In this document: positions 46,389-64,000 of the stretch, piece after piece
Numbering within the stretch: the first letter of the stretch is position 1
How the letters are laid out: each line of letters begins with the position of its first letter
DNA from: a virus
Taxonomy: Duplodnaviria > Heunggongvirae > Uroviricota > Caudoviricetes
Virus record (IMG/VR): IMGVR_UViG_3300048577_000420
Coordinates: 22,579 to 86,578 of that record
DNA: 64,000 nt
Direction: 5' to 3' (one strand)
The notes under the pieces: generated by a model
Told to the model about the DNA's origin: nothing
Seen by the model: only the letters and a program-made list of their open reading frames with translations
Databases searched by the model: none
Translations under genes and position numbers: made by a program

Positions 46389-46672
46389 AGATGACCGCCG
46401 GCACCGACTCCACCAGCGCGCGGCTCATCGCCGCGGCCCAGGCCATCCAGCTCGCCGAGCGTTTGCCCGACGCGACCGCCAAGACGGTCGTCAACCGCGC
46501 CAAGGCGGCGAGGGCAGCCATCGTCGCCTGCGAGCCGTCGCTCGCCCTCTCGGTCCTCAGGGACATCGAGGAGGTAGTCGCTGACTGCGGCGACGCCGAG
46601 GTCATCGAGGTCGTGAAGCGGCGGATCGAGGAACTCCGTCGGCCGGTCGAGTTCGCCGCGAGGCGCTCGTGA
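46385..46672 (+). CDS. Small hypothetical protein
   Basis: GTGA coupling. Confidence 0.45.
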   Translation: MKMTAGTDSTSARLIAAAQAIQLAERLPDATAKTVVNRAKAARAAIVACEPSLALSVLRDIEEVVADCGDAEVIEVVKRRIEELRRPVEFAARRS

Positions 46673-47625
46673 TCATCCGACAGAGCGACCTGGCGTCCTT
46701 CCAGCGCTGCGCGCAGGAGGTCAAGCTCCGTCGCCTCGCCGTCGAGCAGGGCTGGGCCGAGCCCGCGCTCTCGGCGACCCTGCGCGGCAGCGTCCTGCAC
46801 TACGCCTTCATGGTCCTCGCCCGGCTGATGCACGAGGGCCGCGAGGACGCACTGGAGGTCGCGCTCGCGACGTTCGAGCACTACTGGGACCCGCGCCACA
46901 TCACGGAGCTGGAGGGCATCGACCGGCCCGTCGACGAGTGGATCGGCACGGACACCTGGGGCGGCCTGCTCCAGCGCTCCCTCGGCAACCTCCGGGCCGC
47001 GGCTGCCTGGCTGAAGCGTGACAAGGCGGTGCTGCTCGGCCTGGAGCACTCCTTCGACGTGCCCATCGTGATCGACGGCGAGGAGCACACCCTCCACGGG
47101 ACCGTCGACATGCTCAACCTCCGCATGGTCAACAGCCGGCCCGAGCTCGGCATCGACGACCTCAAGGGGTACCGGCGGAAGAAGACCCGGCTCGACCGGG
47201 CGACCCAGTGGACCGTCTACTCCTACGCCTCGCTGCAGCCCCAGTTCTGGGTGCCCTTCTACGAGAACGCCGAGGTCCTGGAGGGCTTCGCGGAGGTCGT
47301 CGACCGCCTCGACCTGCGCGGCCTCGCGCTCTACCCGCCGGCGACGCCCGACGAGCGCACGGTCATCCCCCGCGTGGGCCGCCTGCTGTGGGCCTGGGAC
47401 GGCTTCGAGGTCCAGTCCACCGGCTACCGCACGGACCTGCACTACGCCCAGCTCCGCGCCCAGCTCCGCGAGTACATCGGCGCGGTCCGGCACGGCGTCT
47501 GGCCCCTGACCGTCGACGCCCACGTCTGCGACTACTGCCCGTTCGGCGGTCTGCGAGCCGACGGCTCCGGGCTCCCCATCTGCGGCGACGCACCCATCCC
47601 ACCCCGACAGGAAGGCATCCAGTGA
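46669..47625 (+). CDS. PD-(D/E)XK nuclease of the Cas4/RecB family (recombination exonuclease)
   Basis: N-terminal Cys (QRC) and a C-terminal CDYCPF..C Fe-S-type cysteine cluster. Confidence 0.65.
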   Translation: MIIRQSDLASFQRCAQEVKLRRLAVEQGWAEPALSATLRGSVLHYAFMVLARLMHEGREDALEVALATFEHYWDPRHITELEGIDRPVDEWIGTDTWGGLLQRSLGNLRAAAAWLKRDKAVLLGLEHSFDVPIVIDGEEHTLHGTVDMLNLRMVNSRPELGIDDLKGYRRKKTRLDRATQWTVYSYASLQPQFWVPFYENAEVLEGFAEVVDRLDLRGLALYPPATPDERTVIPRVGRLLWAWDGFEVQSTGYRTDLHYAQLRAQLREYIGAVRHGVWPLTVDAHVCDYCPFGGLRADGSGLPICGDAPIPPRQEGIQ

Positions 47626-48308
47626 CCGGCCCCATCACCCACGAGGAGCACCAGGCGATCGAGCGCCTGGACCGCCTCTCCGACGTCATCGCGAGGTGGC
47701 GCATGGAAGTCGACCCCGGCGCGGAGTACGCCGCCAAGGTCGCCCAGGAGATCGCCACCGTCGGCACCTACCTGCTCGACAACCCGCGGCCCGTCGTCCA
47801 GCCGCACGTCTCGTACGAGGGCGACGACCTCGCCGCCCTCCGCATGAGCATCGACGAGCGGATCGAGCGCCTCGGCACGGGCTTCGAGGACGAGGACGAG
47901 GACCCGATCCTCGCGCTCGTCGCCGACCTGATCGAGTACCGGGTCGCGCTCTGGGACGAGCCCGCCGGCTACGTGCTCGCCGAGCCGACCAAGGCCCTCT
48001 GGCAGCAGGACCAGGCCGTCGAGGAGGCGCTGGGCGAGCTGGAGCAGGTCCTCAGCGACGAGCCGGTCATCGTGCCCGCCTCGGAGCTGGCGCACGTGGA
48101 CCACGGCCTCCTGCTGCGCGCCACGCACCTGCACTCCACCGACGGCGCCTGCCTCAAGCACCGCTCGGGCCCGCCGTGCAACCCGGCGAAGGGGATGGCC
48201 GACCACCCCTCCAGCAACACCTACGCGGGCGTCGCCGGCGCGCTGCGCAACCCGGTCAAGGGCGGCCCGGCCACCCACGTCGCGATCAACCTGGTGGTGA
48301 CCCTGTGA
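47622..48308 (+). CDS. Hypothetical protein
   Basis: GTGA coupling. Confidence 0.5.
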   Translation: MTGPITHEEHQAIERLDRLSDVIARWRMEVDPGAEYAAKVAQEIATVGTYLLDNPRPVVQPHVSYEGDDLAALRMSIDERIERLGTGFEDEDEDPILALVADLIEYRVALWDEPAGYVLAEPTKALWQQDQAVEEALGELEQVLSDEPVIVPASELAHVDHGLLLRATHLHSTDGACLKHRSGPPCNPAKGMADHPSSNTYAGVAGALRNPVKGGPATHVAINLVVTL

Positions 48309-49594
48309 TCCAGATCAAGACCACCGGCCTCGACGACTACCTCGACGGCGACGGCGGCACCACGAACATCAAGGCGCTCATCCTCGGGCGCCCCGGCACC
48401 GGCAAGACGCGCGGTGCCTCGTACTGGAAGCGCCCCTTCCTGATCGACGGCGAGAAGAGCCGCTCGGTCCTGAACGACCGCCCGACCCCGTACGCCGAGG
48501 TCTCCTGCGCGGAGGACCTCAAGGAGATCATCCGCTACCTCAAGGTCGAGGCGGGCAAGCCCAACCGGAAGTACGACACGGTCATCGTCGACACGGTCGA
48601 CGGCATCCAGCTGAAGCTCATCAAGGAGCGTCTGGCGAAGGTCAAGCGCGACCGGATGGAGGCCTACGAGGGCGACTACGACGCCGTCAACACGCCGCTC
48701 ACCGACTTCATCGACGAGCTCCGTGAGCTGCCCTACAACGTCGTCGTCAACGTCCACCTCAAGGAGGCCGGCAAGGTCGCCAAGAAGGACGACCCGGGCC
48801 CCGCGGCGCGCGGCGACGACACGATCACCCAGGCCCAGGCGTGGGACCCGGACCTCGCAGGTGGGATCCGCCAGAAGCTTGCCGGCTGGTTCGACCTCGT
48901 GGGCCTGATGGAGAACACCTGGACGGTCAAGGACGGCAAGAAGGTCATCGGTCGCCAGATCCGCTGGCAGCCCACGCCGGAGCTGCCCTACCTCAAGGAC
49001 CGCCTCTACGCCTTCCCGCCCGTCACGCCCGTCAACTTCGAGGACGCCGACTACGAGCGGCTGGTCGGGTACCTCCAGAAGAAGGCCGCGCGGCTGAAGC
49101 CGGGTGAGGTCGTCGAGGAGATCGGCGAGCCGAGCAAGGCGGCACCGCCGGACATCCCGGGCGGGCCCGTCAAGGCCGAGCCGTCGGGCGTCCTCCCGAG
49201 GCCGCGCGCCGCCGCCAAGCCGAAGGGGGCGAAGGCAGAGGGCGCCGCGAAGGACGCGCCCGAGCCCGCCCCCGATCCGACTCCCGAGGTCCCGTCGGCG
49301 GAGGGCCCGGCGCCCGAGGCGGTCACCGCCCCGCTCGACCAGGTCGTCGACGCCGAGGTCGTCACCGAGGCCGCAGCCGAGCCGGAGGTCGCGCCCGAGG
49401 AGGCCGTCGCCGCCGTCCAGGAGGTCCTCGGCGGGGAGGTCGTCGCGGAGGAGGTCGACTACGCCGCCCAGGCCGAGAAGGCCACCAACCGCGAGGAGAT
49501 CCGCGCGATCTGGGACGCGGCGAAGACCGCCGGCCAGCTCACTTCTGCCCTGAAGGCGCGGCTCACCGTTCTGGGCCGCAAGCTCGCGGCCTGA
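48305..49594 (+). CDS. RecA-fold ATPase, Sak4/AAA_24-like, with an acidic Pro/Ala/Glu-rich C-terminal tail
   Basis: Walker A ILGRPGTGKT, Walker B-like VIVDTVD. Confidence 0.6.
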   Translation: MIQIKTTGLDDYLDGDGGTTNIKALILGRPGTGKTRGASYWKRPFLIDGEKSRSVLNDRPTPYAEVSCAEDLKEIIRYLKVEAGKPNRKYDTVIVDTVDGIQLKLIKERLAKVKRDRMEAYEGDYDAVNTPLTDFIDELRELPYNVVVNVHLKEAGKVAKKDDPGPAARGDDTITQAQAWDPDLAGGIRQKLAGWFDLVGLMENTWTVKDGKKVIGRQIRWQPTPELPYLKDRLYAFPPVTPVNFEDADYERLVGYLQKKAARLKPGEVVEEIGEPSKAAPPDIPGGPVKAEPSGVLPRPRAAAKPKGAKAEGAAKDAPEPAPDPTPEVPSAEGPAPEAVTAPLDQVVDAEVVTEAAAEPEVAPEEAVAAVQEVLGGEVVAEEVDYAAQAEKATNREEIRAIWDAAKTAGQLTSALKARLTVLGRKLAA

Positions 49595-50246: not shown

Positions 50247-52208
50247 GTGTCTGACCTGGACGTCCGCGGCTACCTGCGGTCCAAGGCCCTCGACGTGAAG
50301 GCCGCGGGCAAGGAGCTCGTCGTCCCCTGCTTCTTCCTCTGCGGGGAGCCCGGGGACTCCCGCAAGAAGAAGCTCTACGTCAACGCCGAGCACGGCGCGT
50401 TCTCCTGCAAGGTCTGCGGCACCGAGGGTGGCTGGCGCCGCATCCTTGAGCACTTCGGCGACGAGGAGCGCGCCGACACCTTCAAGCCCTCGCGGCGCCT
50501 GCAGGTCAACGCCGAGTACGTCCGGGCCTGCCAGGACGCGCTCATGGCGAACGAGCGTGCGCTCACCTACCTCTTCGACCGCGGCCTCACGCTGGACACG
50601 ATCGAGGCCGCCCGCCTGGGCTACCACCCCAAGGGCACGGCGATCGTCGAGCACCTGCCCTCGGCCCTGAAGCCGGGCGGCTTCACGCGGGACGAGCTGC
50701 GCGAGTCCGGCCTGCTCACCGCGAGCGGCCGCGACTTCCACGAGGGCCGGATCATCCTGCCGTACGTCGTCTCCGGCCAGGTCGTCCAGGTCCGCGGCCG
50801 GGCGCTCGACCCCAAGGCGCAGATCAAGTACGCCACGCCCGCCGGCGACGAGGTGCGCCTCTACAACTCCGACGCGCTGCGCGGCGCTGACGCGGTGATC
50901 GTCGTCGAGGGCGAGATCGACCTGCTCATGCTGCAGCAGGCGCTCCAGTCCTCTCCCGACGTCCGTGCGCGGAACCTCGCGGTCGTCGCCGTGCCCGGGT
51001 CGCAGGCGCTGCCCGGCGGCAAGGAGGGGTTCGGCGAGTACTTCGAGGACATCCGCCGGGTCTACGTCGGCTTCGACAGCGACAACGCCGGCAAGCAGGG
51101 CGCGATCAAGGTCAAGGACATGCTCGGGGCCAAGGCCCGGGTCGTCGAGCTCAAGGGCGCGAAGGACTGGGCCGAGCTCATCGCGGACGGCTCGACCTGG
51201 CGCGACGTCATGGACCTCGTCGCCGAGGCCGACATGCGCGGCAAGAGGGTCTTCTCGATCGAGGAGTCGGCCCGGAAGCTCTTCGCGATCGAGCAGGGCA
51301 AGCCCGGCATCAAGACGGGCTTCGCCAGCCTCGACGCGTTCCTCGCCCCCGGCCTCCTGCCGGGCGGCGTCACGATCCCGCTCGCGAAGACGGGCAACGG
51401 GAAGTCGATCTTCCTCGCCAACGTCGCCTACTACGCCCGCCACGTCCCGACGCTCTACATCACGCTGGAGCTCACCGCGGCGGAGACCTACAACCGCCTG
51501 CGCCGGATCACTCGCTTCCACCACCCGACCGCGGGCGAGCGCGAGGTCTGGGCCCAGTACCCGCTGCTCGGCCTCGTCGAGGACAACCGGCTCTCCCCCG
51601 AGGACTTCGAGCGCCTCGTGGAGGAGTTCGCCGAGGAGCGCGGCGAGCGCCCCCAGCTGGTCTTCGTCGACCACCTCACCTACTACGCCCACTACCAGAA
51701 GGGCGCCGGCGAGTACGAGAAGACGACCGCCGCCGTCATGCAGCTGAAGGAAGAGGCCAAGCGGCACGAGGTCCACATCATCGCGCCGTCGCAGGTCAAC
51801 CGGACCAAGAAGCAGGGCGAGGCCCTGGAGCTGGAGAGCGCTCGCAACTCGGGGGCGATCGAGGAGACGGCCGACTTCGCCCTGGGCATCTGGCGGCCGC
51901 ACCTGGCCGACGACGTGGCCGGAGCGGCCCAGGCCGGCGCGGTCGGGGACGACCTGAACATCTCGATCCTCAAGTCGCGGCACGGCAACCAGGGGCGCAT
52001 CGCTCCGCTCGTCTTCTCGGCCGCCTCCCTCGTGATGGTCGACCGCGCCGACCGCAGAAACGCCCAGCGCGTGGCGCTGGAGAACGCCGCCATCAACCGC
52101 GGCGAGAAGTACCAGGCCATCTATGACCGCGACCGCCAGCGGGCGTGGGCAGACCAACAGGGAGCGCTGCTCCCCTCCGGAAAGGACACCGCAAGTGGCA
52201 ACTGCTGA
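50247..52208 (+). CDS. Bifunctional primase-helicase (zinc-binding domain, Toprim primase domain, DnaB-like helicase)
   Basis: Cys cluster CFFLCG..CKVCG. Toprim segment VVVEGEIDLLML. DnaB-like GNGKSIFLANVAYY and SQVNRTKKQGEALELESARNSGAIEETADF. Confidence 0.8.
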   Translation: MSDLDVRGYLRSKALDVKAAGKELVVPCFFLCGEPGDSRKKKLYVNAEHGAFSCKVCGTEGGWRRILEHFGDEERADTFKPSRRLQVNAEYVRACQDALMANERALTYLFDRGLTLDTIEAARLGYHPKGTAIVEHLPSALKPGGFTRDELRESGLLTASGRDFHEGRIILPYVVSGQVVQVRGRALDPKAQIKYATPAGDEVRLYNSDALRGADAVIVVEGEIDLLMLQQALQSSPDVRARNLAVVAVPGSQALPGGKEGFGEYFEDIRRVYVGFDSDNAGKQGAIKVKDMLGAKARVVELKGAKDWAELIADGSTWRDVMDLVAEADMRGKRVFSIEESARKLFAIEQGKPGIKTGFASLDAFLAPGLLPGGVTIPLAKTGNGKSIFLANVAYYARHVPTLYITLELTAAETYNRLRRITRFHHPTAGEREVWAQYPLLGLVEDNRLSPEDFERLVEEFAEERGERPQLVFVDHLTYYAHYQKGAGEYEKTTAAVMQLKEEAKRHEVHIIAPSQVNRTKKQGEALELESARNSGAIEETADFALGIWRPHLADDVAGAAQAGAVGDDLNISILKSRHGNQGRIAPLVFSAASLVMVDRADRRNAQRVALENAAINRGEKYQAIYDRDRQRAWADQQGALLPSGKDTASGNC

Positions 52209-52835: not shown

Positions 52836-53385
52836 CGAGAACCTCCGCATCGCCCTGACGAAGGCGATCGCGGATGCGATGGCCGGCGCGATGGCCAAGC
52901 TGCGCGAGGCCCACTTCGCCACGCTCCTGGAGCAGTACGACGAGGTCGGCACCAAGCAGTTCTCCGTGGCCCTGCCGGACGGCACCAAGGTCGCCACGAT
53001 CACCCTGACCGAGAAGAAGGAAGCCTTCGAGGTCACCGACGAGATCGCGTTCCTCACCTGGGCCCAGGAGAACCTGCCCGAGGACGCGATCCACGAGGTC
53101 GTCGTCCCGCCCGTCCCCGAGATGCGCTTCATCGAGGTCGACCCGAAGGCCCAGGCGGCGCTGATCAAGCGGCTCGACCACCGCGGCGACCTCGCCTTCG
53201 ACCCCGAGACCGGCCAGGCCGTCGACGGCATCACCTACCGGCCCGCGGGGCGCCCGTCGCAGTTCGCGGTCACGTACGTGAACAAGGACGAGGGGCGCGA
53301 GCGGCTCATCGACGCCTGGCGTGCCGGCGACCTCGCCGAGCTCGTCGGCACGGACGTGCTGCCCGCGATCGAGAGCGGGTCCTGA
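52822..53385 (+). CDS. Hypothetical protein
   Basis: ORF track. Confidence 0.5.
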   Translation: MSLRDENLRIALTKAIADAMAGAMAKLREAHFATLLEQYDEVGTKQFSVALPDGTKVATITLTEKKEAFEVTDEIAFLTWAQENLPEDAIHEVVVPPVPEMRFIEVDPKAQAALIKRLDHRGDLAFDPETGQAVDGITYRPAGRPSQFAVTYVNKDEGRERLIDAWRAGDLAELVGTDVLPAIESGS

Positions 53386-53846
53386 TGGGGTACGCCGAGA
53401 AGACGGACGTCTCCAGTGCGCAGTCGCGCATCGAGCTGGAGCGGATCCTGGAGCGCTACGGCGCCGAGCAGTTCGCGTACATGAGCCGCCCGGGACAGGC
53501 CGTGGTCGCCTTCGTGCACCTCGACCGCCAGGTGCGCTTCGTCCTGCCGCTGCCGGACCGGAACGACCGTCGCTTCACGCACACGCCCGACCGCGGCCTG
53601 GTCCGCTCGGCTGACGCGGCCGCGCGCGAGTACGAGCAGGCGGTTCGGCAGCGGTGGCGCGCCCTGTGCCTGGTCGTCAAGGCCAAGCTCGAAGCGGTCG
53701 ACGCGGGCATCACGACGTTCGACGAGGAGTTCCTCGCGAACCTCGTGCTGCCGGGCGGCGCGAGCGTCTACGAGTCGATCGCCGAGGACATCTCGGTCGC
53801 CCGCCTCACCGGCGCCGTGCCCGTGCTCCAGATCGCGGCCCGATGA
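53385..53846 (+). CDS. Hypothetical protein
   Basis: ATGA coupling. Confidence 0.5.
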   Translation: MGYAEKTDVSSAQSRIELERILERYGAEQFAYMSRPGQAVVAFVHLDRQVRFVLPLPDRNDRRFTHTPDRGLVRSADAAAREYEQAVRQRWRALCLVVKAKLEAVDAGITTFDEEFLANLVLPGGASVYESIAEDISVARLTGAVPVLQIAAR

Positions 53847-53989
53847 CACCGGCCCCCTACCCGTGCGCGGCGCAGCCCGGCCGCGGCCTCGTCCATCTCG
53901 ACGGGCCGTGCCGGTGCTTCGCCGGCGGGCCGGCGCCTGCCTTCCCGCAGGTCCCCCGGCTCGACGAGGGCGAGGGGGCGAAGTGAGCG

Positions 53990-54181
53990 ATGGAGCAGGA
54001 CCGGATCTACCAGGCGATCGCCAAGAGGCACAGCGGCCTGAAGCAGGACGGCTTCCCCGGACTCGACCAGGTCGACGCAAGGGCACGTGGGCCGCTCGCG
54101 AAGGTCTTCGCCCGCGAGGCGGGTGTGACCCGCTGGCGGGAAGTCGAGGTGTGGCCCCAGGAGGAGGACGCAGGTGAATGA
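53990..54181 (+). CDS. Small hypothetical protein
   Basis: ORF track. Confidence 0.35.
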   Translation: MEQDRIYQAIAKRHSGLKQDGFPGLDQVDARARGPLAKVFAREAGVTRWREVEVWPQEEDAGE

Positions 54182-54674
54182 CCCGACGGACGGCACCGTC
54201 TTCGACGCGCTTCACCGGCTCTTCGGGGCGGGCGAGTTCACCGGGGACGACGCCGAGTGGCACCGGTGGCGGGCGCAGGAGATCTCGAAGATCAAGGCCT
54301 ACCGCACCAAGCGGAACGTCGACCCCTTCGAGCTCGTGCGCGCCGCCCAGTACTGCCGCCGCCACGGCATCTGGATCAGAGCCCATTGGGAGCTCTACGA
54401 GCACCTCGCCGCGGCCAACCGCGAGGAGCTCGACCGCCAGCGCGCCGCGGAGATCGCGGACCTCGACGGCCTCATCGAGGACGCCCTGGCGATCGAGCTC
54501 ACCAACCCGGACAGCCCTTGGGTCGACCGGCTCATCCGGGCCGCCGGCCCCGCACGGAAGGAGGTCTACGACGCATGGAAGCAGTGGTCCTCCGCTTCCC
54601 AGCGCCGCGACGGGACTGCACCGACTGCGCCTTCCACCGGGCCGGCTGGTGCACGACCTGGGGGGAGGCCGTAG
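54174..54674 (+). CDS. Hypothetical protein. The 3' end has low GC3 and an overlapping alternative frame, so the stop is uncertain
   Basis: GTG start. ORF track. Confidence 0.45.
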   Translation: MNDPTDGTVFDALHRLFGAGEFTGDDAEWHRWRAQEISKIKAYRTKRNVDPFELVRAAQYCRRHGIWIRAHWELYEHLAAANREELDRQRAAEIADLDGLIEDALAIELTNPDSPWVDRLIRAAGPARKEVYDAWKQWSSASQRRDGTAPTAPSTGPAGARPGGRP

Positions 54675-55049
54675 GTGGCCCGTCGTCTGACCTGGACGCC
54701 CAAGCCTGCGAGCACTTCGAGCGCCAGGAAGGCGAAGGTCGAGCTGACGGGCAGGCACCGGCACGGGTGTACGACCTGCAGCGCCACCTACGAGGACGCC
54801 TGCGACGACCCCTGGGCGAACGGCCGCTGCACCCCTCATCGCCACCCTGAGCGGCTCGCCCCGATCTGGGAGCAGAACCTGCGCCCGCAGGAATGCTGCG
54901 CCGCCTCCATCGAGGCCACGCCCGCCGACATCGCGACCTACCGACTCGGCGGCGACGCGCCCTGGTGGATCTGCCCGACCTGCAAGAGACCCCACATCTT
55001 CAAGCCGCGCCCGACCGGGCCCGGCGAGACCCGAGAGGAGAGCACGTGA
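54675..55049 (+). CDS. Cys-rich putative zinc-binding protein
   Basis: GTG with GGGGGAGG RBS. GC3 about 88%. Contains HGCTTCS and CPTCKRPH. Confidence 0.5.
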   Translation: MARRLTWTPKPASTSSARKAKVELTGRHRHGCTTCSATYEDACDDPWANGRCTPHRHPERLAPIWEQNLRPQECCAASIEATPADIATYRLGGDAPWWICPTCKRPHIFKPRPTGPGETREEST

Positions 55050-55459
55050 CCACCACCCCTGCTGACGACGAGGTCGACTTCGACCCCGACGCCAAGCCCG
55101 ACGACTTCGACACCGCGATGGGCCAGGCGCTCGCCGAGGCGGCCGGCAGCGCGCCGCGGCACAACGTCGGCGGCTCCGACGACGCCGAGCGCGAGCCCCT
55201 GATGTTCGAGGGCCGCGAGGTCAAGAAGACCGAGGTCGTCATCAAGGGCCTCACCGGCCTGTCCGAGGCGTACGAGGGCCTGAGGATCGGCATGGACGAC
55301 CGCGTGCGCCTCGTCGTCGAGACCCGGGCCACGAAGGTCAACCACTACGTCGACAAGGACGGCGAGCTCGTGCGCTCGCAGGAGCTCAAGGTCCTCGTCG
55401 CGGACATCGTGCCGTGGGACCCGACGAACCCGAGCGACGACGGGATCCTCCGCGCATGA
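55046..55459 (+). CDS. Hypothetical protein
   Basis: GTGA coupling. Confidence 0.5.
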   Translation: MTTTPADDEVDFDPDAKPDDFDTAMGQALAEAAGSAPRHNVGGSDDAEREPLMFEGREVKKTEVVIKGLTGLSEAYEGLRIGMDDRVRLVVETRATKVNHYVDKDGELVRSQELKVLVADIVPWDPTNPSDDGILRA

Positions 55460-55773
55460 GCACCCACGCGGACATCCTGACCGCGCTCGCCGAGCCCCGA
55501 GCCGAGGTCATCCTCGCCGGCGACCGCGTGCGCACCCGGGACGCCTTCTACCGCGTGGCGTCCCGGGTGGACCCGGTCACGATCTCGCGTGCCGTCGGTC
55601 GCGAGCACGTCGAGCTCGGCAACGGCGCGCGCCTCCTGGTGGCTCCGGGCTGGCCGCAGATGCGCGGGATGCACCCCGACCGGATCTTCGTGCTCGGCGA
55701 GCTCAGCGACCAGTTCCGCACGGAGTGCATCGCCCTGCTCCGGCCGGGCGGCGTCCTGGTGCACGAGCCGTGA
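55456..55773 (+). CDS. Hypothetical protein
   Basis: ATGA coupling. Confidence 0.45.
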   Translation: MSTHADILTALAEPRAEVILAGDRVRTRDAFYRVASRVDPVTISRAVGREHVELGNGARLLVAPGWPQMRGMHPDRIFVLGELSDQFRTECIALLRPGGVLVHEP

Positions 55774-56291
55774 GGGCGCTCCTGGCCATCGACCCGGGCA
55801 ACACAGAGTCCGGCTGGGTCGTCATCGACCCGACGACCAGCCGTCCGCTCGCCTTCGCCAAGAGCCCGAACGCCGAGCTCCTGGAGATGCTCCGCGGCCG
55901 CTACTTCCCGGTGAGGGCGGCCCAGGCCGGCGCGAGCGAGACCGCCTTCGACGTCGACCGAGTCGTGATCGAGATGGTGGCGTCGTACGGGATGCCCGTC
56001 GGCGCGGAGGTCTTCGAGACCTGCGTGTGGATCGGGCGCTACCAGCAGGCCCTCGTCGACGAGTGGAGCCTCGACGCGGCCCTCGTCTACCGGCAGCCGG
56101 TGAAGCTCCACCACTGCCATTCCACGAAGGCGACCGACGCCAACATCCGCCAGGCGTTGGTGGACCGGTTCGCGAAGGGTCTGCCCAACTTCGGGAAGGG
56201 CACCAAGAAGGCCCCGGGCTGGTTCTTCGGATTCGGCAAGGACGTCTGGCAGGCGTACGCGCTCGCCGTCTACGCGGCGGACACGGAGTAG
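55770..56291 (+). CDS. RuvC-fold Holliday junction resolvase
   Basis: N-terminal LAIDPGNTESGWVV (RuvC/YqgF-like D-P-G motif). Confidence 0.6.
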   Translation: MRALLAIDPGNTESGWVVIDPTTSRPLAFAKSPNAELLEMLRGRYFPVRAAQAGASETAFDVDRVVIEMVASYGMPVGAEVFETCVWIGRYQQALVDEWSLDAALVYRQPVKLHHCHSTKATDANIRQALVDRFAKGLPNFGKGTKKAPGWFFGFGKDVWQAYALAVYAADTE

Positions 56292-56594
56292 GTGCACGTG
56301 ATCACGCTCGGGGTCCGAATGACGGCGCAGACGGACGGTTCGCAGGTCTGTCAGGGGGACCCCGAGCTGTTCTTCTCGGAGGTCTCGGCCGACAACGTCG
56401 CCGCAGCCAAGGCGTGCAGCCACTGCCCGTTTCAGCTGCCGTGCCGCCTCGAAGGTCTGGTCAACGACGAGGAGGGCGTGTGGGGCGGCTGGTCCTACAA
56501 CCGGCGCCGCCGGATGGGTCAAGCCGGCCGCCAGCGCGCAATCGAGGAACTGCGGTTTCTGCTAGCACAGGAAAGGACGGGATTGGCCTCTTGA
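56292..56594 (+). CDS. WhiB-like (Wbl) Fe-S transcription factor
   Basis: Four Cys spaced C-X22-C-X2-C-X5-C plus the GVWGG turn motif. The alternative ATG at 56319 gives a shorter product. Confidence 0.75.
   Translation: MHVITLGVRMTAQTDGSQVCQGDPELFFSEVSADNVAAAKACSHCPFQLPCRLEGLVNDEEGVWGGWSYNRRRRMGQAGRQRAIEELRFLLAQERTGLAS
56556..56573. promoter_or_regulatory. Degenerate IR copy TTTCTGC-TAGC-ACAGGAA inside the 3' end of the WhiB-like gene
   Basis: Read directly from the sequence. 5 of 7 arm matches. Confidence 0.35.
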
Positions 56595-56845
56595 CTGACA
56601 GCGATGTCAAGATTCTCGCGGTCCAGATCACCGACTCCGGAATGGAGTTGGTCGTCGCCGCAGAGAGCGAACGAAGGAAGGGACTGGGCGTCGCCCACAG
56701 CTACTTCGTCGATTTCGCCGGAGAGCGTTTCGGGCAGCAGGCCCGCGACATTCTCGACGAGATCGAGGACCTGGCAGAACGTGTCCACGTCGGCTGGAAG
56801 CGAGAGCCGAAGGCAGAGCCCGACAAGGAGGTGAGCGAGGAGTGA
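56591..56845 (+). CDS. Small acidic hypothetical protein. Start uncertain (TTG at 56591 or ATG at 56642)
   Basis: Open frame ending with a GTGA overlap into the next gene. Confidence 0.3.
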   Translation: MTDSDVKILAVQITDSGMELVVAAESERRKGLGVAHSYFVDFAGERFGQQARDILDEIEDLAERVHVGWKREPKAEPDKEVSEE

Positions 56846-57816
56846 AGGTCTACGTCGCGGGGCCCATGCGCAAGCGCCGGGCCTTCAACTTCCCCGCCTT
56901 CATGGAGGCCACCAGCGAGCTCCTGCAGCTCGGGCACGAGGTCTTCAACCCCGCCCAGCGGGACATCGACACCGGCTTCGACCCGCTCGGCATGACCGGG
57001 TTCGAGGACCTCAACGACGGCACGCACCGCTTCGACCTCCGCGAGGCCCTCGCGGCCGACACCGCGTGGATCGCCACCCAGGCGGAAGCGCTGTGCCTGC
57101 TGCCCGGGTGGGAGGAGTCCTCGGGCGCCCGGGCGGAGGTGGCCCTCGCCGCGGCCCTCGGGCTCCAGGCTGGCGAGCTCGCCGACTTCTACATCGGGAA
57201 CACCCTGCGGCCGGCAGCGGACTTCTACGCCGCCCGGTGGAACGCGAACCCGCCCAAGGTCGAGGGCGAACCGGTCCGCATCCACCTCACGGCCAACCGC
57301 CCGGGCACGCCCGGCGCGCCCCTGAGCGTGAACCCGGGCGCAGCGTCGCTCGGCACGCTCAGCATCGAGGACCTCGGCGGCCGCGACGGAGACGGCTCCC
57401 ACGAGGTCATTCCGCAGGGCGACGAGGTGCGCTTGACCTCCTCCACCGGTGGCCAGAAGGGCGACAAGGAGGCCCGGTTCGACCTCATCCCCGCCCGGCC
57501 GCTGTGGGAGCTCGCGACCCTCTACGGCCGCGGCGCCCAGAAGTATGCCGAGCGCAACTGGGAGAGCGGCTACGAGTTCCACCTGTCGTTCTCCGCCGCC
57601 ATGCGCCACGCCTGGTCGTGGTGGAACGGGGAGGACCGCGACCCCGAGACCGGCGTCAGCCATCTCGTCAACGCCGCCTGGCACCTCCTCAACCTCGTCC
57701 AGCTCCAGATCACCCACCCCGAGCACGACGACCGCCCCCAGCGGCGTCTCCCGCTCACCATCCCGAAGGGGGCGCTCCAGCGCCGCCCGCTCCCCACCCC
57801 GAGAGGAACCATCTGA
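56842..57816 (+). CDS. Fusion protein: N-terminal nucleoside 2-deoxyribosyltransferase-like (DUF4406/DNPH1-like) domain plus C-terminal dATP/dGTP pyrophosphohydrolase-like domain
   Basis: N-terminal MKVYVAGPM..FNPAQRD. C-terminal ARFDLIPARPLWELATLYGRGAQKYAERNWESGYEF. Confidence 0.55.
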   Translation: MKVYVAGPMRKRRAFNFPAFMEATSELLQLGHEVFNPAQRDIDTGFDPLGMTGFEDLNDGTHRFDLREALAADTAWIATQAEALCLLPGWEESSGARAEVALAAALGLQAGELADFYIGNTLRPAADFYAARWNANPPKVEGEPVRIHLTANRPGTPGAPLSVNPGAASLGTLSIEDLGGRDGDGSHEVIPQGDEVRLTSSTGGQKGDKEARFDLIPARPLWELATLYGRGAQKYAERNWESGYEFHLSFSAAMRHAWSWWNGEDRDPETGVSHLVNAAWHLLNLVQLQITHPEHDDRPQRRLPLTIPKGALQRRPLPTPRGTI

Positions 57817-58793
57817 TGTTCGTCCTGCTCCTGCTGCTCGCGGTCGCCGCGATCGGCGTGGCGATCGGCTCGTGCTTCGCGCCGAAGAAGTCGTCGTACG
57901 GCACCCCGATGCGCTCGATCCTGCGGCTCGCGGCCGGCGCCCTCGCCGTGCTCGCGGTCGTCGTCGGGCTCTTCTCGACGATCTACACCCAGCGGCCCGG
58001 CGAGGCGAAGGTCATCCTCAACTGGGGTGGCGGCGTCGCCGACGTCGACACGACGCCCGGCATCAGCTTCAAGGCGCCCTGGCAGTCGGCCAGCACGTGG
58101 GATCTGCTCTCGCAGACCGCCACGTACGCCGGCGACGACAAGGCGGTGCCCGCGTACACCGAGGGCAACATCCAGGGCAAGGAGATCACCGTCTCGCTCG
58201 CCAAGGGCGTGCAGGGCGACATCGACGCCCAGATCACCTACTCGCTGGACGCCGACAAGGCGACGCTGACGGACCTCTACAACCGGTTCCGCTCCCAGGA
58301 GTCCTTCACCCGCCAGATCATCCAGACCAACAACCTCTCCGAGATGCGCGAGGGGCCGAAGGAGATGGACGCCGTCACCTTCCGTGGTGAGGGCCGTGCG
58401 TCGGTGGAGCAGTCGGTGAAGGCCGCCCTCAACGATATCTACCGCCCGTACGGCGTGACGGTCTCGCAGGTCACCATCCAGGGCATCCGGTTCTCCGACA
58501 GCGTGGAGGCCTCGATCCAGGAGGCCGCCGCGGCCGCCCAGCGCCAGGTCACGGCCCAGGCCAACCTCGCGGCGACTCAGATCGACGCCCAGGCCCAGGT
58601 CGTCCAGGCCGAGCAGGCGGCGAAGGCGGCCGTCGCGAAGGCCCAGGGCGAGGCGGACGCGAACGCGCTGCTCGCCGCGTCGCTCACCCCCCAGGTGCTC
58701 CAGCAGCACTACATCGACGCCCTGAAGGCCGGCACGGTGTTCGTGGTGCCGGAGGGCTCGAACCCGCTCGTCCAGGTCCCCAGCGGCCACTGA
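57816..58793 (+). CDS. SPFH/band-7 (stomatin/prohibitin/HflC-like) membrane protein
   Basis: N-terminal TM helix, SPFH core, and a C-terminal Ala/Gln coiled coil. ATGA-coupled to the upstream fusion gene. Confidence 0.65.
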   Translation: MFVLLLLLAVAAIGVAIGSCFAPKKSSYGTPMRSILRLAAGALAVLAVVVGLFSTIYTQRPGEAKVILNWGGGVADVDTTPGISFKAPWQSASTWDLLSQTATYAGDDKAVPAYTEGNIQGKEITVSLAKGVQGDIDAQITYSLDADKATLTDLYNRFRSQESFTRQIIQTNNLSEMREGPKEMDAVTFRGEGRASVEQSVKAALNDIYRPYGVTVSQVTIQGIRFSDSVEASIQEAAAAAQRQVTAQANLAATQIDAQAQVVQAEQAAKAAVAKAQGEADANALLAASLTPQVLQQHYIDALKAGTVFVVPEGSNPLVQVPSGH

Positions 58794-58940
58794 GATGAGC
58801 GACCAGGAGAAGGCGGACTTCCTCCGCGAGACCGCCGAGGCTGTCATGGCCGAGAGGTGGGGCGGGCGCGTCTGGAGGCTGTGCGCCTTCGCCTGGTTGA
58901 CCGCCCGCGCTGACCGCCTCGCACCCAGGAAGGCGAAGCG

Positions 58941-59432
58941 GTGAGGCACATCGCGGGCCGGGTCCCCGTCTCCGCTCCAGAGGCTCCCCTCGGGGGGTCT
59001 CTGGAGCGGGGCGAGGTCGACTGGGACGGATCGGCGAGCTACGGGACGCCGGTCCAGCCGACGCGGCGCTACGACCGGGCCAACGTGAACACCTCGAAGA
59101 TCCGCGGCTCCAACGACATGCACTACCTGGCCGTCGACATCGACCACCCGGCTCAGCTCATCCCCAGCAGCACGCCGGGCCACTCCCACCTCTACATCGC
59201 GAAGCCGCTCACGTGGCCCGAGATGGTCGACGTGCTGGGCGCCCTCGCCCGGGTGGGGATCGTCGAGCCCGGCTACGCCGCGGCGGCCATCCGGCAGGGC
59301 CACACGACGCTCCGACTGCCCTGGGTGCGCAAGAGCCGGCGACCTCGAAGCCGGCGCCGCTACCGCGAGCCCGATCCCCCGTCCGACTTCCTGCCGCTGC
59401 TGCTGCTCACTCCGAACGGAGACCCCTTCTGA
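58941..59432 (+). CDS. Hypothetical protein
   Basis: ORF track. GTG start. Confidence 0.5.
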   Translation: MRHIAGRVPVSAPEAPLGGSLERGEVDWDGSASYGTPVQPTRRYDRANVNTSKIRGSNDMHYLAVDIDHPAQLIPSSTPGHSHLYIAKPLTWPEMVDVLGALARVGIVEPGYAAAAIRQGHTTLRLPWVRKSRRPRSRRRYREPDPPSDFLPLLLLTPNGDPF

Positions 59433-59719
59433 TGACCACCCCGGAGCCCGGCCAGGTCTGGGCGGACAACGACCCCCGTGTTGCCGGTCGGACGATCCAG
59501 ATCGCCGCCATCGAAGGCGACGTGGCCCTCTGCACCGTGCTGACCAACAGCGACGCGGACCAGCGCGACATCGACCTGCTCGGCTCTCACGGGCCTCGCG
59601 GTCGGTACGTCGCCGGCGGCTGGGTCCCGGGCGACCGCCGAGGCGCCACCACCCGAGTCCGGCTCTCGCGGCTGCGGCCGACGTCGACCGGCTTCCGACT
59701 GATCGAGGAGACACGATGA
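59432..59719 (+). CDS. Hypothetical protein
   Basis: ATGA coupling. Confidence 0.45.
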   Translation: MTTPEPGQVWADNDPRVAGRTIQIAAIEGDVALCTVLTNSDADQRDIDLLGSHGPRGRYVAGGWVPGDRRGATTRVRLSRLRPTSTGFRLIEETR

Positions 59720-60078
59720 CGTTCGCCGTCGGGGACAAGGTCCTGATCGTCTGCCACAACCGGCCGTCCCAGGCCCCGGTCGAGGCCGAGGTGCTCTCGG
59801 TCGCGCGCAAGTACCTCTTCGCGCGCCCGCTCGGCGGTGGCCCCGCCTCGGGCGCGCGCTTCGACAAGGAGACGGGTGCCGAGAAGGACGGCGGCTTCTA
59901 CCACCGCACGATCTACACCCCGGAGGCCCTCGCCGAGAAGCGCGAGCGCGACACCCTGGGGCAGCGCCTCGCGTTCGCCACGCGCCCGTCCAACTGGACG
60001 AGGCGCCTCAGCCTGGAGGAGCTCCGCGCGGTGGCGGCCATCGTCGCGCCCGTCGCCGACGAGGAGGCGAGCCGCTGA
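59716..60078 (+). CDS. Hypothetical protein
   Basis: ATGA coupling. Confidence 0.5.
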   Translation: MTFAVGDKVLIVCHNRPSQAPVEAEVLSVARKYLFARPLGGGPASGARFDKETGAEKDGGFYHRTIYTPEALAEKRERDTLGQRLAFATRPSNWTRRLSLEELRAVAAIVAPVADEEASR

Positions 60079-62341: not shown

Positions 62342-64000
62342 GTGGAACTGGCCTTCTACGGCCGCGTGTCGACAGAGGACGCGCAGGACCCGGAGGCGTC
62401 CCGCGCCTGGCAACTTCGCCGGGCGCGGGACCTCGTTGAGCCGCTCGGCCACCGCATCGTGGTCGAGTACTTCGACATCGGCCAGAGCCGCTCCCTCCCC
62501 TGGAAGCGCCGCCGCGAGGCGAGCCGCCTGCTTGAGGACGTCCAGGGCGCCGGGCGCACGTTCCAGGGCATCGTCGTCGGCGAGCCCCAGCGCGCGTTCT
62601 ACGGCAACCAGTTCTCGCTGACCTTCCCGGTGCTGGTCCACTACGGCGTCGCCCTGTGGGTGCCGGAGGTCGGCGGCAAGGTCGACCCGGACTCCGAGGC
62701 GCACGACCTCGTGATGTCCCTCTTCGGCGGCATGTCGAAGGGCGAGCGGTCCCGCATCCGCACGAGGACCCGCCTGGCGATGCACGAGCTCGCCGCGAAC
62801 ACGGACCGCTTCCTCGGGGGGCGGCCGCCGTACGGCTACCAGCTGGCCGACGCCGGGCCGCACCCGAACCCCTCGAAGGCGGCGGCGGGCCAGCGGGCGC
62901 ACCGGCTGGAGCCCGACCCCATCACCGCGCCGCACGTGCGCACGATCTTCCACGCGTACGCCCAGGGTGCCGGCCTGCGCGAGATCGCCGACTCGCTCAC
63001 CTCGGCTGGGGTGCCCTCGCCGTCGGCGTACGACCGGCGCCGGAACTCCCACCGGGACCCTCGCGGCTGGTCGCACAGCGCCGTGCGCGCGATCCTGGCG
63101 AACCCGGCCTACAGCGGCGTCCGGGCCTGGGGCAAGCAGGAGAAGTACGAGACCCTCATGGACGTCGAGGACGTCGCCCTGGGCACCCAGGTCCGGATGC
63201 GCTGGCGCGACGCCGACGCGTGGGTGCGGCCCCACAGCAAGACGCACGAGGCGCTGGTGGACGACGACACGTTCGCCACCGTCCAGGGTCGCCTCGGCGC
63301 GCCGGGGCACAACGCCGACGCGACCCGGAAGCCCCGGGAGTCGGCCCACGTCTACACGCTGCGCGGCCTGCTTTACTGCGGCCTCTGCGGGCGCCGGATG
63401 CAGGGCGCGCGTCGCCCGAACCGCACCGAGGGCAGCGACCGCATCCTCTACCGCTGCGAGCTGATGCGGGGCCGGTCCATCGGCGACGAGTGCCCGGGCC
63501 ACCCGAAGACCGTCTACCTCAACGAGGCCGAGGTCGTGCCGCAGATCGACGCCTGGCTGGGCGGTCTGATGGCCGACACCTCGTGGCTCCTGGACTCCCA
63601 GCGGGCCGTCCGCGAGCCCGCCGAAGTGGTCGCGCTCCGCGAGCGCGCACGGGAGGTGGACGCCGCCCTGGCGAACCTCATGGCCGCCATCGAGCGGGGC
63701 GTGATGTCCGAGGCGATCCTCAGCCAGCTCCAGCAGCGGGAGGCCGAGAAGGCCGGGATCGCGGCCCGTCTGGCGGCCGTTGACCGGCCTCGGGAGGGCA
63801 TGTCGGCCGCCGACATCCGGGCCGTCATGGAGGCGTTCGGGGGCATGGCGGAGGTGCTCGCGCAGGCGACTCCGGAGGAGCGCGCGGCGGCGTATCAGAC
63901 CGTTGACCTGCGGCTTGACTTCGACCCGGGTACCAGGGAGATCGCCGCTGCGGCCGACCCGACCGCGTGTGTCGCTAACCGTGTCCGGAGGGGGACTTGA
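62342..64000 (+). CDS. int: Large serine recombinase (phage integrase), truncated at the window end
   Basis: N-terminal resolvase catalytic domain YGRVSTEDAQ with catalytic Ser. Recombinase domain and Zn-ribbon Cys (CGLCGRRM..C) further downstream. Confidence 0.85.
   Translation: MELAFYGRVSTEDAQDPEASRAWQLRRARDLVEPLGHRIVVEYFDIGQSRSLPWKRRREASRLLEDVQGAGRTFQGIVVGEPQRAFYGNQFSLTFPVLVHYGVALWVPEVGGKVDPDSEAHDLVMSLFGGMSKGERSRIRTRTRLAMHELAANTDRFLGGRPPYGYQLADAGPHPNPSKAAAGQRAHRLEPDPITAPHVRTIFHAYAQGAGLREIADSLTSAGVPSPSAYDRRRNSHRDPRGWSHSAVRAILANPAYSGVRAWGKQEKYETLMDVEDVALGTQVRMRWRDADAWVRPHSKTHEALVDDDTFATVQGRLGAPGHNADATRKPRESAHVYTLRGLLYCGLCGRRMQGARRPNRTEGSDRILYRCELMRGRSIGDECPGHPKTVYLNEAEVVPQIDAWLGGLMADTSWLLDSQRAVREPAEVVALRERAREVDAALANLMAAIERGVMSEAILSQLQQREAEKAGIAARLAAVDRPREGMSAADIRAVMEAFGGMAEVLAQATPEERAAAYQTVDLRLDFDPGTREIAAAADPTACVANRVRRGT

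Follow-up and report, generated by a model that had tools for sequence, protein, structure and literature searches.

Only one characterized enzyme, DmtZ-DutZ, unites dNTP pyrophosphohydrolysis and N-glycosidic chemistry on the dNMP in a single polypeptide. The 2026 description presented it as peculiar to phages whose genomes contain 2-aminoadenine; it occurs as a fusion in phage Wayne (ALY10777.1) and as separate DmtZ and DutZ proteins in Gordonia phage Ghobes (Poubanne et al., NAR 2026, PMC12884076). The Wayne enzyme converts dATP to adenine and is also able to transfer deoxyribose-5-phosphate (dR5P) to 2-aminoadenine. The DUF5664 protein of Wayne hydrolyzes dATP, dUTP, and dGTP to the dNMPs with Mn2+, in the order of preference dATP > dUTP > dGTP and with a kcat of 0.48 s-1 for dATP. 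In the nucleoside 2'-deoxyribosyltransferase (NDT) superfamily, roles are assigned to a triad of Tyr, Asp or Asn, and Glu, in which the Glu is the nucleophile and the Tyr gives specificity for deoxynucleotides (PMC12884076). A DUF5664-DUF550 "MazZ-type" dATP/dGTP pyrophosphohydrolase is described for Acinetobacter phage SH-Ab 15497 (Zhou et al. 2021, cited in PMC12884076 and PMC8342488).

The stretch of DNA analyzed here (the window) is 64,000 nucleotides long, has 71% G+C, and contains a gene, ORF A, in which DUF4406 is fused to DUF5664 (Table 1). The product of ORF A would be a bifunctional enzyme that processes deoxynucleotides, encoded in an early/replication operon of a temperate actinobacterial prophage; this reading has a probability of roughly two in three. 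ORF A is a genuine gene. Its GC3 is 0.957, its start overlaps the stop of the upstream ORF as GTGA, and a 440-kb metagenome contig encodes a 100% identical protein, P0001. The public gene call on that contig is 316 aa long from Met9 and lacks the first 8 residues, including Tyr4 of the predicted catalytic triad, whereas ORF A starts with MKVYVAGPM and its homologues begin with MxVYxAGPM in the alignment. The homologues range in length from 225 to 496 aa. The disorder of the linker means that the geometry of any channeling in ORF A cannot be inferred. No NCBIfam model matched the fusion, and the best DNA relative among sequenced phages had about 70% identity over 240 bp, in the DUF5664 region only.

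Table 1. Features discussed in the text, with positions in the 64,000-nt window
Feature	Position	Strand	Basis
PD-(D/E)XK nuclease	46669-47625		
AAA_24 ATPase	48305-49594		
DnaG-DnaB primase-helicase	50247-52208		
Holliday-junction resolvase	55725-56291		PHROG match
WhiB-like protein	56292-56594; also given as 56319-56594	+	Pfam Whib E 1e-11; PHROG; synteny with L170, L059
Upstream 84-aa ORF, no Pfam match	56591-56845	+	Gene call in L003; 47-51% identity in L170, L059
Shine-Dalgarno-like AAGGAGG, 10 nt 5' of the ORF A GTG	56826-56832	+	Read in sequence
ORF A, DUF4406-DUF5664 fusion, 324 aa, GTG start, TGA stop	56842-57816	+	ORF list, GC3, both Pfam domains
N-terminal domain, aa 1-142, DUF4406, predicted NDT/DNPH1-like fold	56842-57267	+	
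Disordered linker, aa 143-190, length varies among homologues	57268-57411	+	AF2 pLDDT <50 at 143-145, 148-190
C-terminal domain, aa 191-298, PF18909/DUF5664	57412-57735	+	Pfam, Wayne identity, AF2, invariant columns
Pro/Arg-rich C-terminal tail, aa 299-324, and stop codon	57736-57816	+	AF2 pLDDT 60-76; tail not conserved in alignment
ORF B, membrane-anchored SPFH/Band-7 protein, 325 aa	57816-58793	+	Pfam Band_7 E 1e-17; phrog_200 E 4.5e-50

The layout of ORF A resembles that of DmtZ-DutZ, with an NDT-superfamily domain at the N terminus, a flexible linker, and a predicted dNTP-to-dNMP pyrophosphohydrolase at the C terminus. As with DmtZ and DutZ, both fused and split forms of DUF4406 and DUF5664 occur, and the Tyr/(Asp or Asn)/Glu triad is accompanied by a Ser six residues ahead of the Glu (Ser93 and Glu99 in ORF A). 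The modules, however, come from different families: DUF4406 takes the place of DmtZ, and DUF5664 that of a trimeric Dut. The triad of ORF A has Asp73, not Asn. In hhalign, a 96-sequence profile aligned with Wayne DmtZ-DutZ at a probability of 1% and over S-x-G-x-x-x-E only. When Wayne PurZ0, DpoZ, and DmtZ-DutZ were used as tblastn queries against the window, nothing better than E 0.17 was obtained; no Dut and no polymerase were found in the window either, and a Z-genome phage was rejected. The sequence-only reading had pointed to pool-cleaning enzymes of base-modifying phages as analogues; DmtZ-DutZ, with its conversion of dATP to adenine, is a characterized analogue. The combination of DUF4406 and PF18909 seen in ORF A is shared by UPU15984.1 of Stenotrophomonas virus Jojan60 (42% identity at 92% query coverage), whose gene belongs to a replication module and has a Holliday-junction resolvase as its neighbor. 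It differs from ORF A in having a 75-aa N-terminal extension and a proteobacterial host, and it is a "purine trans deoxyribosylase" by name only.

From close homology, we infer that the C-terminal half of ORF A is a dNTP pyrophosphohydrolase, which would convert dNTP to dNMP and PPi. Pfam matched PF18909 (dGTP_diPhyd_N, the same as DUF5664) at aa 201 to 298 (E 1e-30, 105.9 bits, cut-off 27), covering positions 2 to 99 of the 99 in the profile. The pyrophosphohydrolase signature that had been named in the sequence-only reading was confirmed at aa 211 to 240 as ARFDLIP / LWELA / YGRGAQKY / ERNW. Residues 192 to 298 align without gaps to the assayed Wayne DUF5664-1 (ALY10775.1), with 58% identity over the whole of PF18909 (E 2e-40). 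Common to both proteins are K206, K209, R212, K234, Y235, R255, H256, E264, D267, E269, H274, H281, D296, and R298. Among these are all the residues that are invariant in the C-terminal half of the homologues (K206, K209, K234, Y235, R255, H256, D267, D296, and R298). In the AF2 model, the domain consists of a beta-hairpin followed by three long helices (mean pLDDT, 90). Placement in the all-alpha MazG/HisE superfamily of NTP pyrophosphohydrolases, which is marked by a four-helix fold and EExxE...ExxD metal-binding motifs, would be tentative. PF18909 is the sole Pfam domain of the Wayne protein, which is active, and the idea that PF18909 is a noncatalytic "N-terminal" accessory of MazZ-type enzymes was therefore rejected. 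Since the Wayne protein has an extra, unrelated 88-aa region at its N terminus, catalysis by PF18909 alone is a point that we infer. That protein is a stand-alone enzyme encoded in a PurZ0 cluster, whereas in ORF A the domain makes up the C-terminal part of a fusion protein, carried by a temperate prophage that looks canonical. The enzyme of SH-Ab 15497, compared by its description, has the same PF18909 (it is the origin of the Pfam name) and the same dNTP-to-dNMP role; as described, it is unlike ORF A in that its partner DUF550 is not NDT-like and its gene lies in a PurZ cluster.

The N-terminal half matches DUF4406 at aa 1 to 109 (Pfam; E 5e-14, 52.9 bits, cut-off 22), a family with more than 3,000 detectable relatives. 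No characterized member was found in the titles and abstracts of the literature on DUF4406, and searches on deoxyribosyltransferase/MazG/phage and DNPH1/bacteriophage gave no further characterized relative. This half shows the fold of NDT and DNPH1 together with their set of active-site residues, and its predicted chemistry is on the N-glycosidic bond of a dNMP. The model shows an alpha/beta fold with a parallel sheet, which is common to the solved NDT, DNPH1, and MilB structures, and all of the top 20 Foldseek matches (20/20) belong to the NDT superfamily, in line with the fold proposed in the sequence-only reading. The predicted active site comprises Tyr4, Arg10, Asp73, Ser93, Gly95, and Glu99; in an alignment of 96 homologues, Tyr4 and Glu99 are at least 90% conserved and Asp73, Ser93, and Gly95 are invariant. 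Five of these residues were paired by hhalign with those of verified rat Rcl (Y4=Y13, R10=R19, D73=D69, S93=S87, and E99=E93) in an alignment that is marginal (E 0.003, probability 10.7%) and ends before Ser117, the second phosphate-binding residue of Rcl. Against solved structures, the single ORF A sequence gave no direct match and the profile only marginal ones (7m5h, E 0.1; 1t1j, E 0.65).

These alignments bear on the nature of the substrate. The Tyr, Arg, Asp, Ser, and Glu of DNPH1/Rcl and of the CMP N-glycosidases MilB, BcmB, and BlsM align with those of ORF A, for which a 5'-phosphorylated substrate is predicted. ORF A differs from DNPH1/Rcl in that the sequence similarity is marginal, the domain is DUF4406 and not Nuc_deoxyrib_tr, and it is fused to a predicted pyrophosphohydrolase. 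An ordinary salvage NDT, fused to DUF5664 without any meaning for a pathway, would be consistent with the match to phrog_355, "nucleoside 2-deoxyribosyltransferase" (E 4e-20), the many NDTs among the structural neighbors, and the annotation of the Jojan60 protein. In the alignment with the NDT 7m5h, however, in which the D...E of that enzyme are also aligned, the Asp that binds the 5'-OH is opposite the invariant Ser93, like Ser87 of Rcl, which fits a 5'-phosphate and not a 5'-OH substrate (by the logic of PMC12884076). Furthermore, all partner domains act on phosphorylated deoxynucleotides, and the module has no phosphatase to make nucleosides. A simple salvage enzyme is thus improbable.

The survey of fused and split arrangements that had been called for was carried out on a sample of 165 related loci (there are about 3,000 DUF4406 homologues). 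The DUF4406-DUF5664 fusion is common, with hundreds of clusters in several phyla, including prophages. Among the 80 best viral loci, about 32 carry it in the N-to-C order, as do 10 of the 80 best genome loci; P0217 has it in the reversed order. The two genes were separate but adjacent, in either order, in nine loci (L102, L110, L114, L119, L096, L152, L117, L128, and L138) and split by 1.5 kb in two (L068 and L089). This pattern supports a functional link between the two halves. At the same syntenic slot as ORF A, L170 carries [DUF4406-DNMK][DUF550 dATP/dGTP pyrophosphohydrolase] and L059 carries [DUF4406][DNMK][PRA-PH NTP pyrophosphohydrolase], where DNMK is a dNMP kinase. The contents of this slot point to a dNMP-level role of DUF4406 and were counted in support of it.

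The recurrence of a dNMP kinase as partner makes transfer a serious alternative. DUF4406 could be chiefly a dR5P transferase, as in the second activity of DmtZ; the pyrophosphohydrolase would supply the dNMP donor, DUF4406 would pass its dR5P to a different base, canonical or noncanonical, and a dNMP kinase, of the host in this case and phage encoded in relatives, would rephosphorylate the product. Fusions usually join consecutive steps, and DUF4406 is fused or adjacent to both dNMP makers (DUF5664, DUF550, and PRA-PH) and the dNMP consumer DNMK (L170, L059, L139, L121, and L154). DmtZ is an existing natural transferase of such a type, and Pro37 of ORF A, which is at least 90% conserved and follows strand 2 in EVFNPA, at a position where Rcl has no Pro in the alignment, parallels Pro57 of Ghobes DmtZ, a transferase-type residue (PMC12884076). 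However, this parallel comes from motif resemblance (to AYDPGA of Wayne DmtZ) and not from a structural alignment, and DmtZ P57A still transfers (PMC12884076). In addition, no DNMK, DUF550, or gene for an unusual base was found in the window, including by Pfam, and a DNMK homologue was within 4 kb in none of the 50 loci holding DUF4406 and DUF5664. Base swapping is therefore possible but doubtful. A broader version, in which DUF4406 is a widespread dR5P transferase that works with an interchangeable all-alpha pyrophosphohydrolase (DUF5664, DUF550, or PRA-PH) and a dNMP kinase along dNTP to dNMP, base swap to dN'MP, and then dN'DP in non-PurZ temperate phages, is unlikely. If this route were true, rebalancing of the pool for a 71% G+C genome or loading of a noncanonical base could be its purpose.

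For the bifunctional enzyme, the following course is proposed, its first step from close homology and its second from the fold, the residues of the active site, and the genomic linkage. Using a divalent metal, the DUF5664 domain would hydrolyze the dNTP to dNMP and PPi. The DUF4406 domain would then bind the 2'-deoxynucleoside 5'-monophosphate, with Tyr4 keeping ribose out and Ser93, Gly95, and Arg10 holding the 5'-phosphate. Glu99, aided by Asp73, may attack C1', so that the free base would leave and a covalent Glu99-deoxyribose-5-phosphate intermediate would stay. Resolution of the intermediate by water would give a net conversion of dNTP to base, dR5P, and PPi, an irreversible removal; resolution by an incoming base would instead convert one dNMP into another. 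In this phage, which does not itself encode a dNMP kinase, we tentatively read the role as hydrolysis-dominant trimming or sanitizing of the pool, at a little under even odds, and a transfer-dominant role is a lesser possibility that we regard with doubt. The two-domain reading of ORF A was correct, and the earlier proposal that one polypeptide couples dNTP-to-dNMP conversion to N-glycosidic chemistry on the dNMP gains from the Wayne homology, the NDT constellation, the fusion pattern, and the DmtZ-DutZ analogue, which together argue for such a coupling.

The neighbors of ORF A that had been named in the sequence-only reading, a nuclease, an ATPase, a primase-helicase, a resolvase, and a WhiB-like protein, were recovered as listed (Table 1). 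The order RuvC-like gene, WhiB, small ORF, and DUF4406 is a conserved synteny marked by WhiB (L170 and L059). We propose that the carrier of ORF A is a temperate actinobacterial prophage and that ORF A is expressed from its early/replication operon. No base-modification or defense-related context was found in the window. It is not obvious why a temperate phage with no polymerase or base-modification genes of its own should have to destroy purine dNTPs, and this was counted against the main reading.

An enzyme that destroys a nucleotide-derived defense molecule or a toxic nucleotide analogue of the host is quite improbable, more so than a salvage NDT. The location in an early phage operon, the spread of the fusion in prophages of several phyla, and a family that has no assigned role in phages with canonical genomes would agree with counterdefense. 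PADLOC, however, gave no defense-system match for the fusion, and the loci examined showed no conserved association with antidefense genes. A site of the Tyr4 type is deoxy specific, whereas the signaling nucleotides known are, to our knowledge, ribonucleotides. Moreover, the characterized DUF5664 works on ordinary dNTPs (PMC12884076).

ORF B follows ORF A directly. Its Band_7 match is clear (65.2 bits versus a cut-off of 23.6), whereas its match to the HflC/HflK equivalogs is weak (29.8 versus a cut-off of 134.4). It had been suggested that the two genes overlap as ATGA, which would imply coexpression, and that their pairing is unusual. The overlap was confirmed, but the junction is TGATG with one shared base (stop at 57814 to 57816 and start at 57816 to 57818). 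A functional pair, for example, an enzyme tethered at the membrane, could be read from this overlap and from L025, in which a true Band_7 gene lies 1.2 kb downstream of the fusion gene. Overlaps are found, however, at 20 of the 29 gene junctions of the operon as called, and L025 is the only one of the 165 related loci with an SPFH ORF within 4 kb, nonadjacent, in a search with a profile HMM of four SPFH proteins. In the SPFH position, the syntenic loci L170 and L059 instead carry a dNMP kinase and/or a different pyrophosphohydrolase. Homologues of ORF B were found in 13 actinophage records. Both inspected neighborhoods, in phages Richie and Yappy, had no DUF4406/DUF5664 gene beside the SPFH homologue, which adjoins unrelated genes, and in phage Count the SPFH and DUF4406/DUF5664 genes are about 27 kb apart. 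SPFH as a partner was rejected by inspection of three contigs, tblastn on 163 loci, and the profile HMM on 165 loci. A functional pair, which the comparative data have already largely refuted, is very improbable. The best explanation is that the SPFH gene is cotranscribed with ORF A but functionally unrelated and that tight gene packing links the two. The sequence-only reading as a whole is partly supported.

The ORF A locus is predicted to follow the logic of DmtZ-DutZ with different parts, in a temperate prophage without Z-genome genes. If this prediction is true, removal or exchange of the base at the dNMP level would be a general strategy of phages for the nucleotide pool and not a Z-genome curiosity, and DUF4406 would have its first function. 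The interchangeable partners at one syntenic slot (DUF5664, DUF550, PRA-PH, and dNMP kinase) would offer natural variants for a comparison of hydrolase and transferase.

The fusion gene and the gene downstream of it were recovered as the sequence-only reading had described them, with Pfam matches to DUF4406 (aa 1-109, E 5e-14) and PF18909 "dGTP_diPhyd_N" (aa 201-298, E 1e-30) in the fusion protein and to Band_7 in its neighbor. PF18909 is the former DUF5664, as shown by the source's own name for the homologue P0118. A Shine-Dalgarno sequence, AAGGAGG, lies 10 nt before the GTG at 56842, which overlaps the upstream stop as GTGA, and this start fits the conserved N-terminus of the family, MxVYxAGPM. 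The public (JGI) gene call, P0001 (316 aa), begins at Met9 and loses 8 residues (window 56842-56866), including the predicted catalytic Tyr4.

The DUF5664 protein ALY10775.1 of Arthrobacter phage Wayne was purified by Poubanne et al. (NAR 2026, PMC12884076). With Mn2+, it converted dATP, dUTP and dGTP to dNMPs, with a kcat of 0.48 s-1 and a Km of 20 uM on dATP and about ten-fold slower activity on dGTP. PF18909 is the sole Pfam domain of ALY10775.1, and aa 192-298 of the fusion protein share 58% identity with it without gaps (E 2e-40). All invariant or near-invariant columns of this half in the 96-sequence alignment (K206, K209, R212, K234, Y235, R255, H256, E264, D267, E269, H274, H281, D296 and R298) are common to the Wayne and window proteins. 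Modelled with AlphaFold (mean pLDDT 90), the domain consists of a beta-hairpin and then three long helices, so the fold assignment is weak; the predicted function as a dNTP pyrophosphohydrolase rests on close homology to the characterized Wayne enzyme, and this C-terminal half falls within the DUF5664 family of pyrophosphohydrolases. The view of PF18909 as a mere accessory "N-terminal domain" of MazZ-type enzymes, taken from the Pfam name, was ruled out by the activity of the Wayne DUF5664 protein.

The model of the full-length protein had pLDDT values of 91-98 in 10-residue blocks to residue 130 and a disordered linker at 143-190, and its top Foldseek matches were exclusively structures of the nucleoside deoxyribosyltransferase (NDT) superfamily. 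The hallmark of this superfamily is a Tyr/Asp(Asn)/Glu triad, in which Glu forms the covalent intermediate and Tyr excludes ribose; the dNMP-specific members are without the Asp/Asn that holds the 5'-OH in nucleoside transferases (PMC12884076). Among 96 homologues, Tyr4 and Glu99 were at least 90% conserved, and Asp73, Ser93 and Gly95 were invariant. A marginal profile alignment (E 0.003) to rat Rcl (DNPH1), whose sequence was checked against PDB 2khz beforehand, paired Tyr4, Arg10, Asp73, Ser93 and Glu99 with Tyr13, Arg19, Asp69, Ser87 and Glu93, respectively, and in the alignment to the nucleoside transferase 7m5h, Ser93 sits on the transferase's Asp. Because the triad residues align and Ser93 replaces the NDT Asp, the N-terminal half looks, under the rules of PMC12884076, like a 2'-deoxynucleoside 5'-monophosphate enzyme. 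Comparison with the family of DmtZ, the NDT-like part of the DmtZ-DutZ fusion of phage Wayne, gave no membership by sequence (hhalign probability 1%, with the S-x-G-x-x-x-E motif alone aligning). This half is an NDT superfamily member with DNPH1-like phosphate-site features that belongs by sequence to neither the DmtZ nor the DNPH1 family.

The DUF4406-DUF5664 fusion is common. Both domains were present in 120 of the 120 best database matches, and an exhaustive search of 1.84 billion representatives gave 396 clusters at E <= 1e-30, nearly all of the 150 listed being two-domain proteins. The fusion was found in genomes of Actinomycetota, Verrucomicrobiota, Pseudomonadota and Planctomycetota and in the sequenced phage Stenotrophomonas virus Jojan60, where it is annotated "purine trans deoxyribosylase." The best 80 viral loci comprised about 32 with the fusion, 39 with DUF5664 only (2 of them with a DUF4406 gene 1.5 kb upstream) and 7 with DUF4406 only. 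A second set of 83 loci, in which 80 genome loci and 3 metagenome contigs were scored together, contained 10 fusions and 9 cases of separate neighboring genes, in N-then-C order (L102, L110, L114, L119, L096 and L152) or C-then-N order (L117, L128 and L138). In the homologue P0217, the fusion is reversed, with DUF5664 preceding DUF4406. Fusion in two orders together with adjacency is a classical sign of two proteins in one pathway, indicating that the two halves are functionally linked. In P0268 and P0327, DUF4406 is fused to the 81-residue domain DUF6378 (PF19905), which may be yet another nucleotide-handling partner. The homologue P0250 (478 aa) has DUF5664 in two matched stretches with a Cys/Ser/Thr-rich insertion of >200 residues.

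The prophage in the window (G+C, 71%) extends from about 19 kb to the right end, and its early/replication operon begins at about 46.7 kb and reaches the large serine recombinase, which marks the end of the prophage. In L003, a 440-kb metagenome contig with an identical stretch, the phage genes are followed by the host genes for an AI-2E transporter and DnaE. The early operon also contains the gene for the ProQ-like protein, and the 247-aa ORF lies between this operon and the structural genes. The Tail Collar protein, well upstream of the presumed structural module, may be part of this prophage or of a different phage-derived element. Very long minus-strand "ORFs" at 53000-59900, overlapping real plus-strand genes (e.g., 57570-59867, 765 aa), were rejected as artefacts of the G+C content.

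Features of the window and of three related loci
Sequence	Coordinates	Strand	Feature	Details
Window	8699-11335		878-aa protein	Phage Tail Collar + CBM_4_9 domains
Window	43755-44498		247-aa ORF, glycosyltransferase-like	Glyco_transf_7C, E 7e-7
Window	56842..57816	+	Fusion ORF; slot: DUF4406-DUF5664, SPFH	GTG start, 324 aa, GC3 0.957
Window	57816..58793	+	Band_7/SPFH membrane protein	Pfam E 1e-17
Window	59716-60078		ProQ C-terminal-like phage domain protein	PF24203, E 5e-18
Window	62342-64000		Large serine recombinase (Resolvase + Recombinase + Zn_ribbon_recom)	Continues past right window edge
L170	5001-6720		Slot: DUF4406-DNMK, DUF550	DUF550, dATP/dGTP pyrophosphohydrolase
L059	4001-5455		Slot: DUF4406, DNMK, PRA-PH	Consecutive overlapping genes; PRA-PH/HisE-type all-alpha NTP pyrophosphohydrolase, E 7e-15
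L025	4001-7014		Fusion gene and true Band_7 gene	Band_7, Pfam E 1.8e-21

The SPFH protein had been proposed as a partner of the fusion protein, coupled to it through an ATGA overlap. The actual junction is TGATG, with one shared base, and 20 of the 29 junctions in this operon overlap as called. Four SPFH proteins were used to build a profile HMM, which, among all ORFs of 165 related loci, matched only in L025 (IMGVR_UViG_3300013104_000035), the only other locus among the 165 with the fusion and a true Band_7 gene within 4 kb. There, the fusion gene is followed after 1.2 kb by the Band_7 gene, with other ORFs intervening, and the locus is otherwise non-syntenic with the window. The SPFH gene was absent from the syntenic relatives L170 and L059. 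Homologues occurred in 13 actinophage records, labelled "band-7-like membrane protein" or "lipoprotein"; unrelated genes lay alongside in the two neighborhoods inspected (Richie and Yappy), and in Microbacterium phage Count, the DUF5664 and band-7 genes are about 27 kb apart. With one non-adjacent case in 165 loci, the proposed partnership was wrong, and the adjacency in the window is a chance local arrangement in an operon whose genes are tightly packed. The N-terminus of the SPFH protein (57816-57890) is a hydrophobic segment ending in a lipobox-like AIGSC, in keeping with the "lipoprotein" annotation of phrog_200, and a second hydrophobic segment lies at about aa 35-60. Similarity to HflC/HflK was weak and below the cut-off.

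Different partners of DUF4406 were found at the syntenic slot. Outside the fusion family, the closest relative of the N-domain among the matches listed was P0182 (66-67% identity over aa 1-130), in which DUF4406 is fused not to DUF5664 but to a deoxynucleotide monophosphate kinase (DNMK, PF21448). Its phage contig, L170 (ENA ERZ27314312 k141_2978813), shares with the window the primase-helicase (57%), several small ORFs (45-52%), WhiB (47%) and an 84-aa ORF (51%). The slot contents of the window, L170 and L059 (IMGVR_UViG_3300012827_000001) indicate that one locus exists in three versions in three related phages, the constant being DUF4406 and some dNTP pyrophosphohydrolase. DNMK is also fused to or beside DUF4406 in L139, L121 and L154. 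All slot partners of DUF4406 make or use dNMPs.

The idea that the polypeptide acts on nucleotides in sequence was broadly right, given a C-terminal half 58% identical to an active dNTP enzyme and an N-terminal half with a dNMP-type site. In the favored two-step scheme (probability about 0.68), the C-domain would convert dNTP to dNMP and PPi, a step supported by its 58% identity to the Wayne DUF5664 protein, for which others measured activity, and the N-domain would cut the glycosidic bond of that dNMP via Glu99. The intermediate would then be resolved by water (hydrolysis) or by a second base (transfer). The DNMK partner in relatives points to a mainly transferring enzyme, passing dR5P to a second base, since the step after a base swap would be phosphorylation by a kinase; however, DNMK was within 4 kb at 0 of 50 loci holding both DUF4406 and DUF5664, and a search of the 64-kb window for DNMK, DUF550, PurZ, DpoZ and Dut found none, both of which favor simple hydrolysis. 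Within this scheme, predominant hydrolysis is tentatively preferred, at somewhat under even odds, and predominant transfer is a less likely but serious alternative.

The only characterized analogue, Wayne DmtZ-DutZ, yields adenine from dATP and also transfers dR5P to 2-aminoadenine (PMC12884076). Based on the substrates of the Wayne DUF5664 enzyme, the best guess for the substrate base would be purines and uracil. DmtZ-DutZ is the closest known system and resembles the window fusion in logic and domain order, but both protein families are different, and the Z-genome context is absent here. A literature search, judged by the titles and abstracts of papers mentioning DUF4406, found no characterization of this domain or of the fusion. 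The predicted fusion enzyme is moderately interesting, and the prediction is readily testable.
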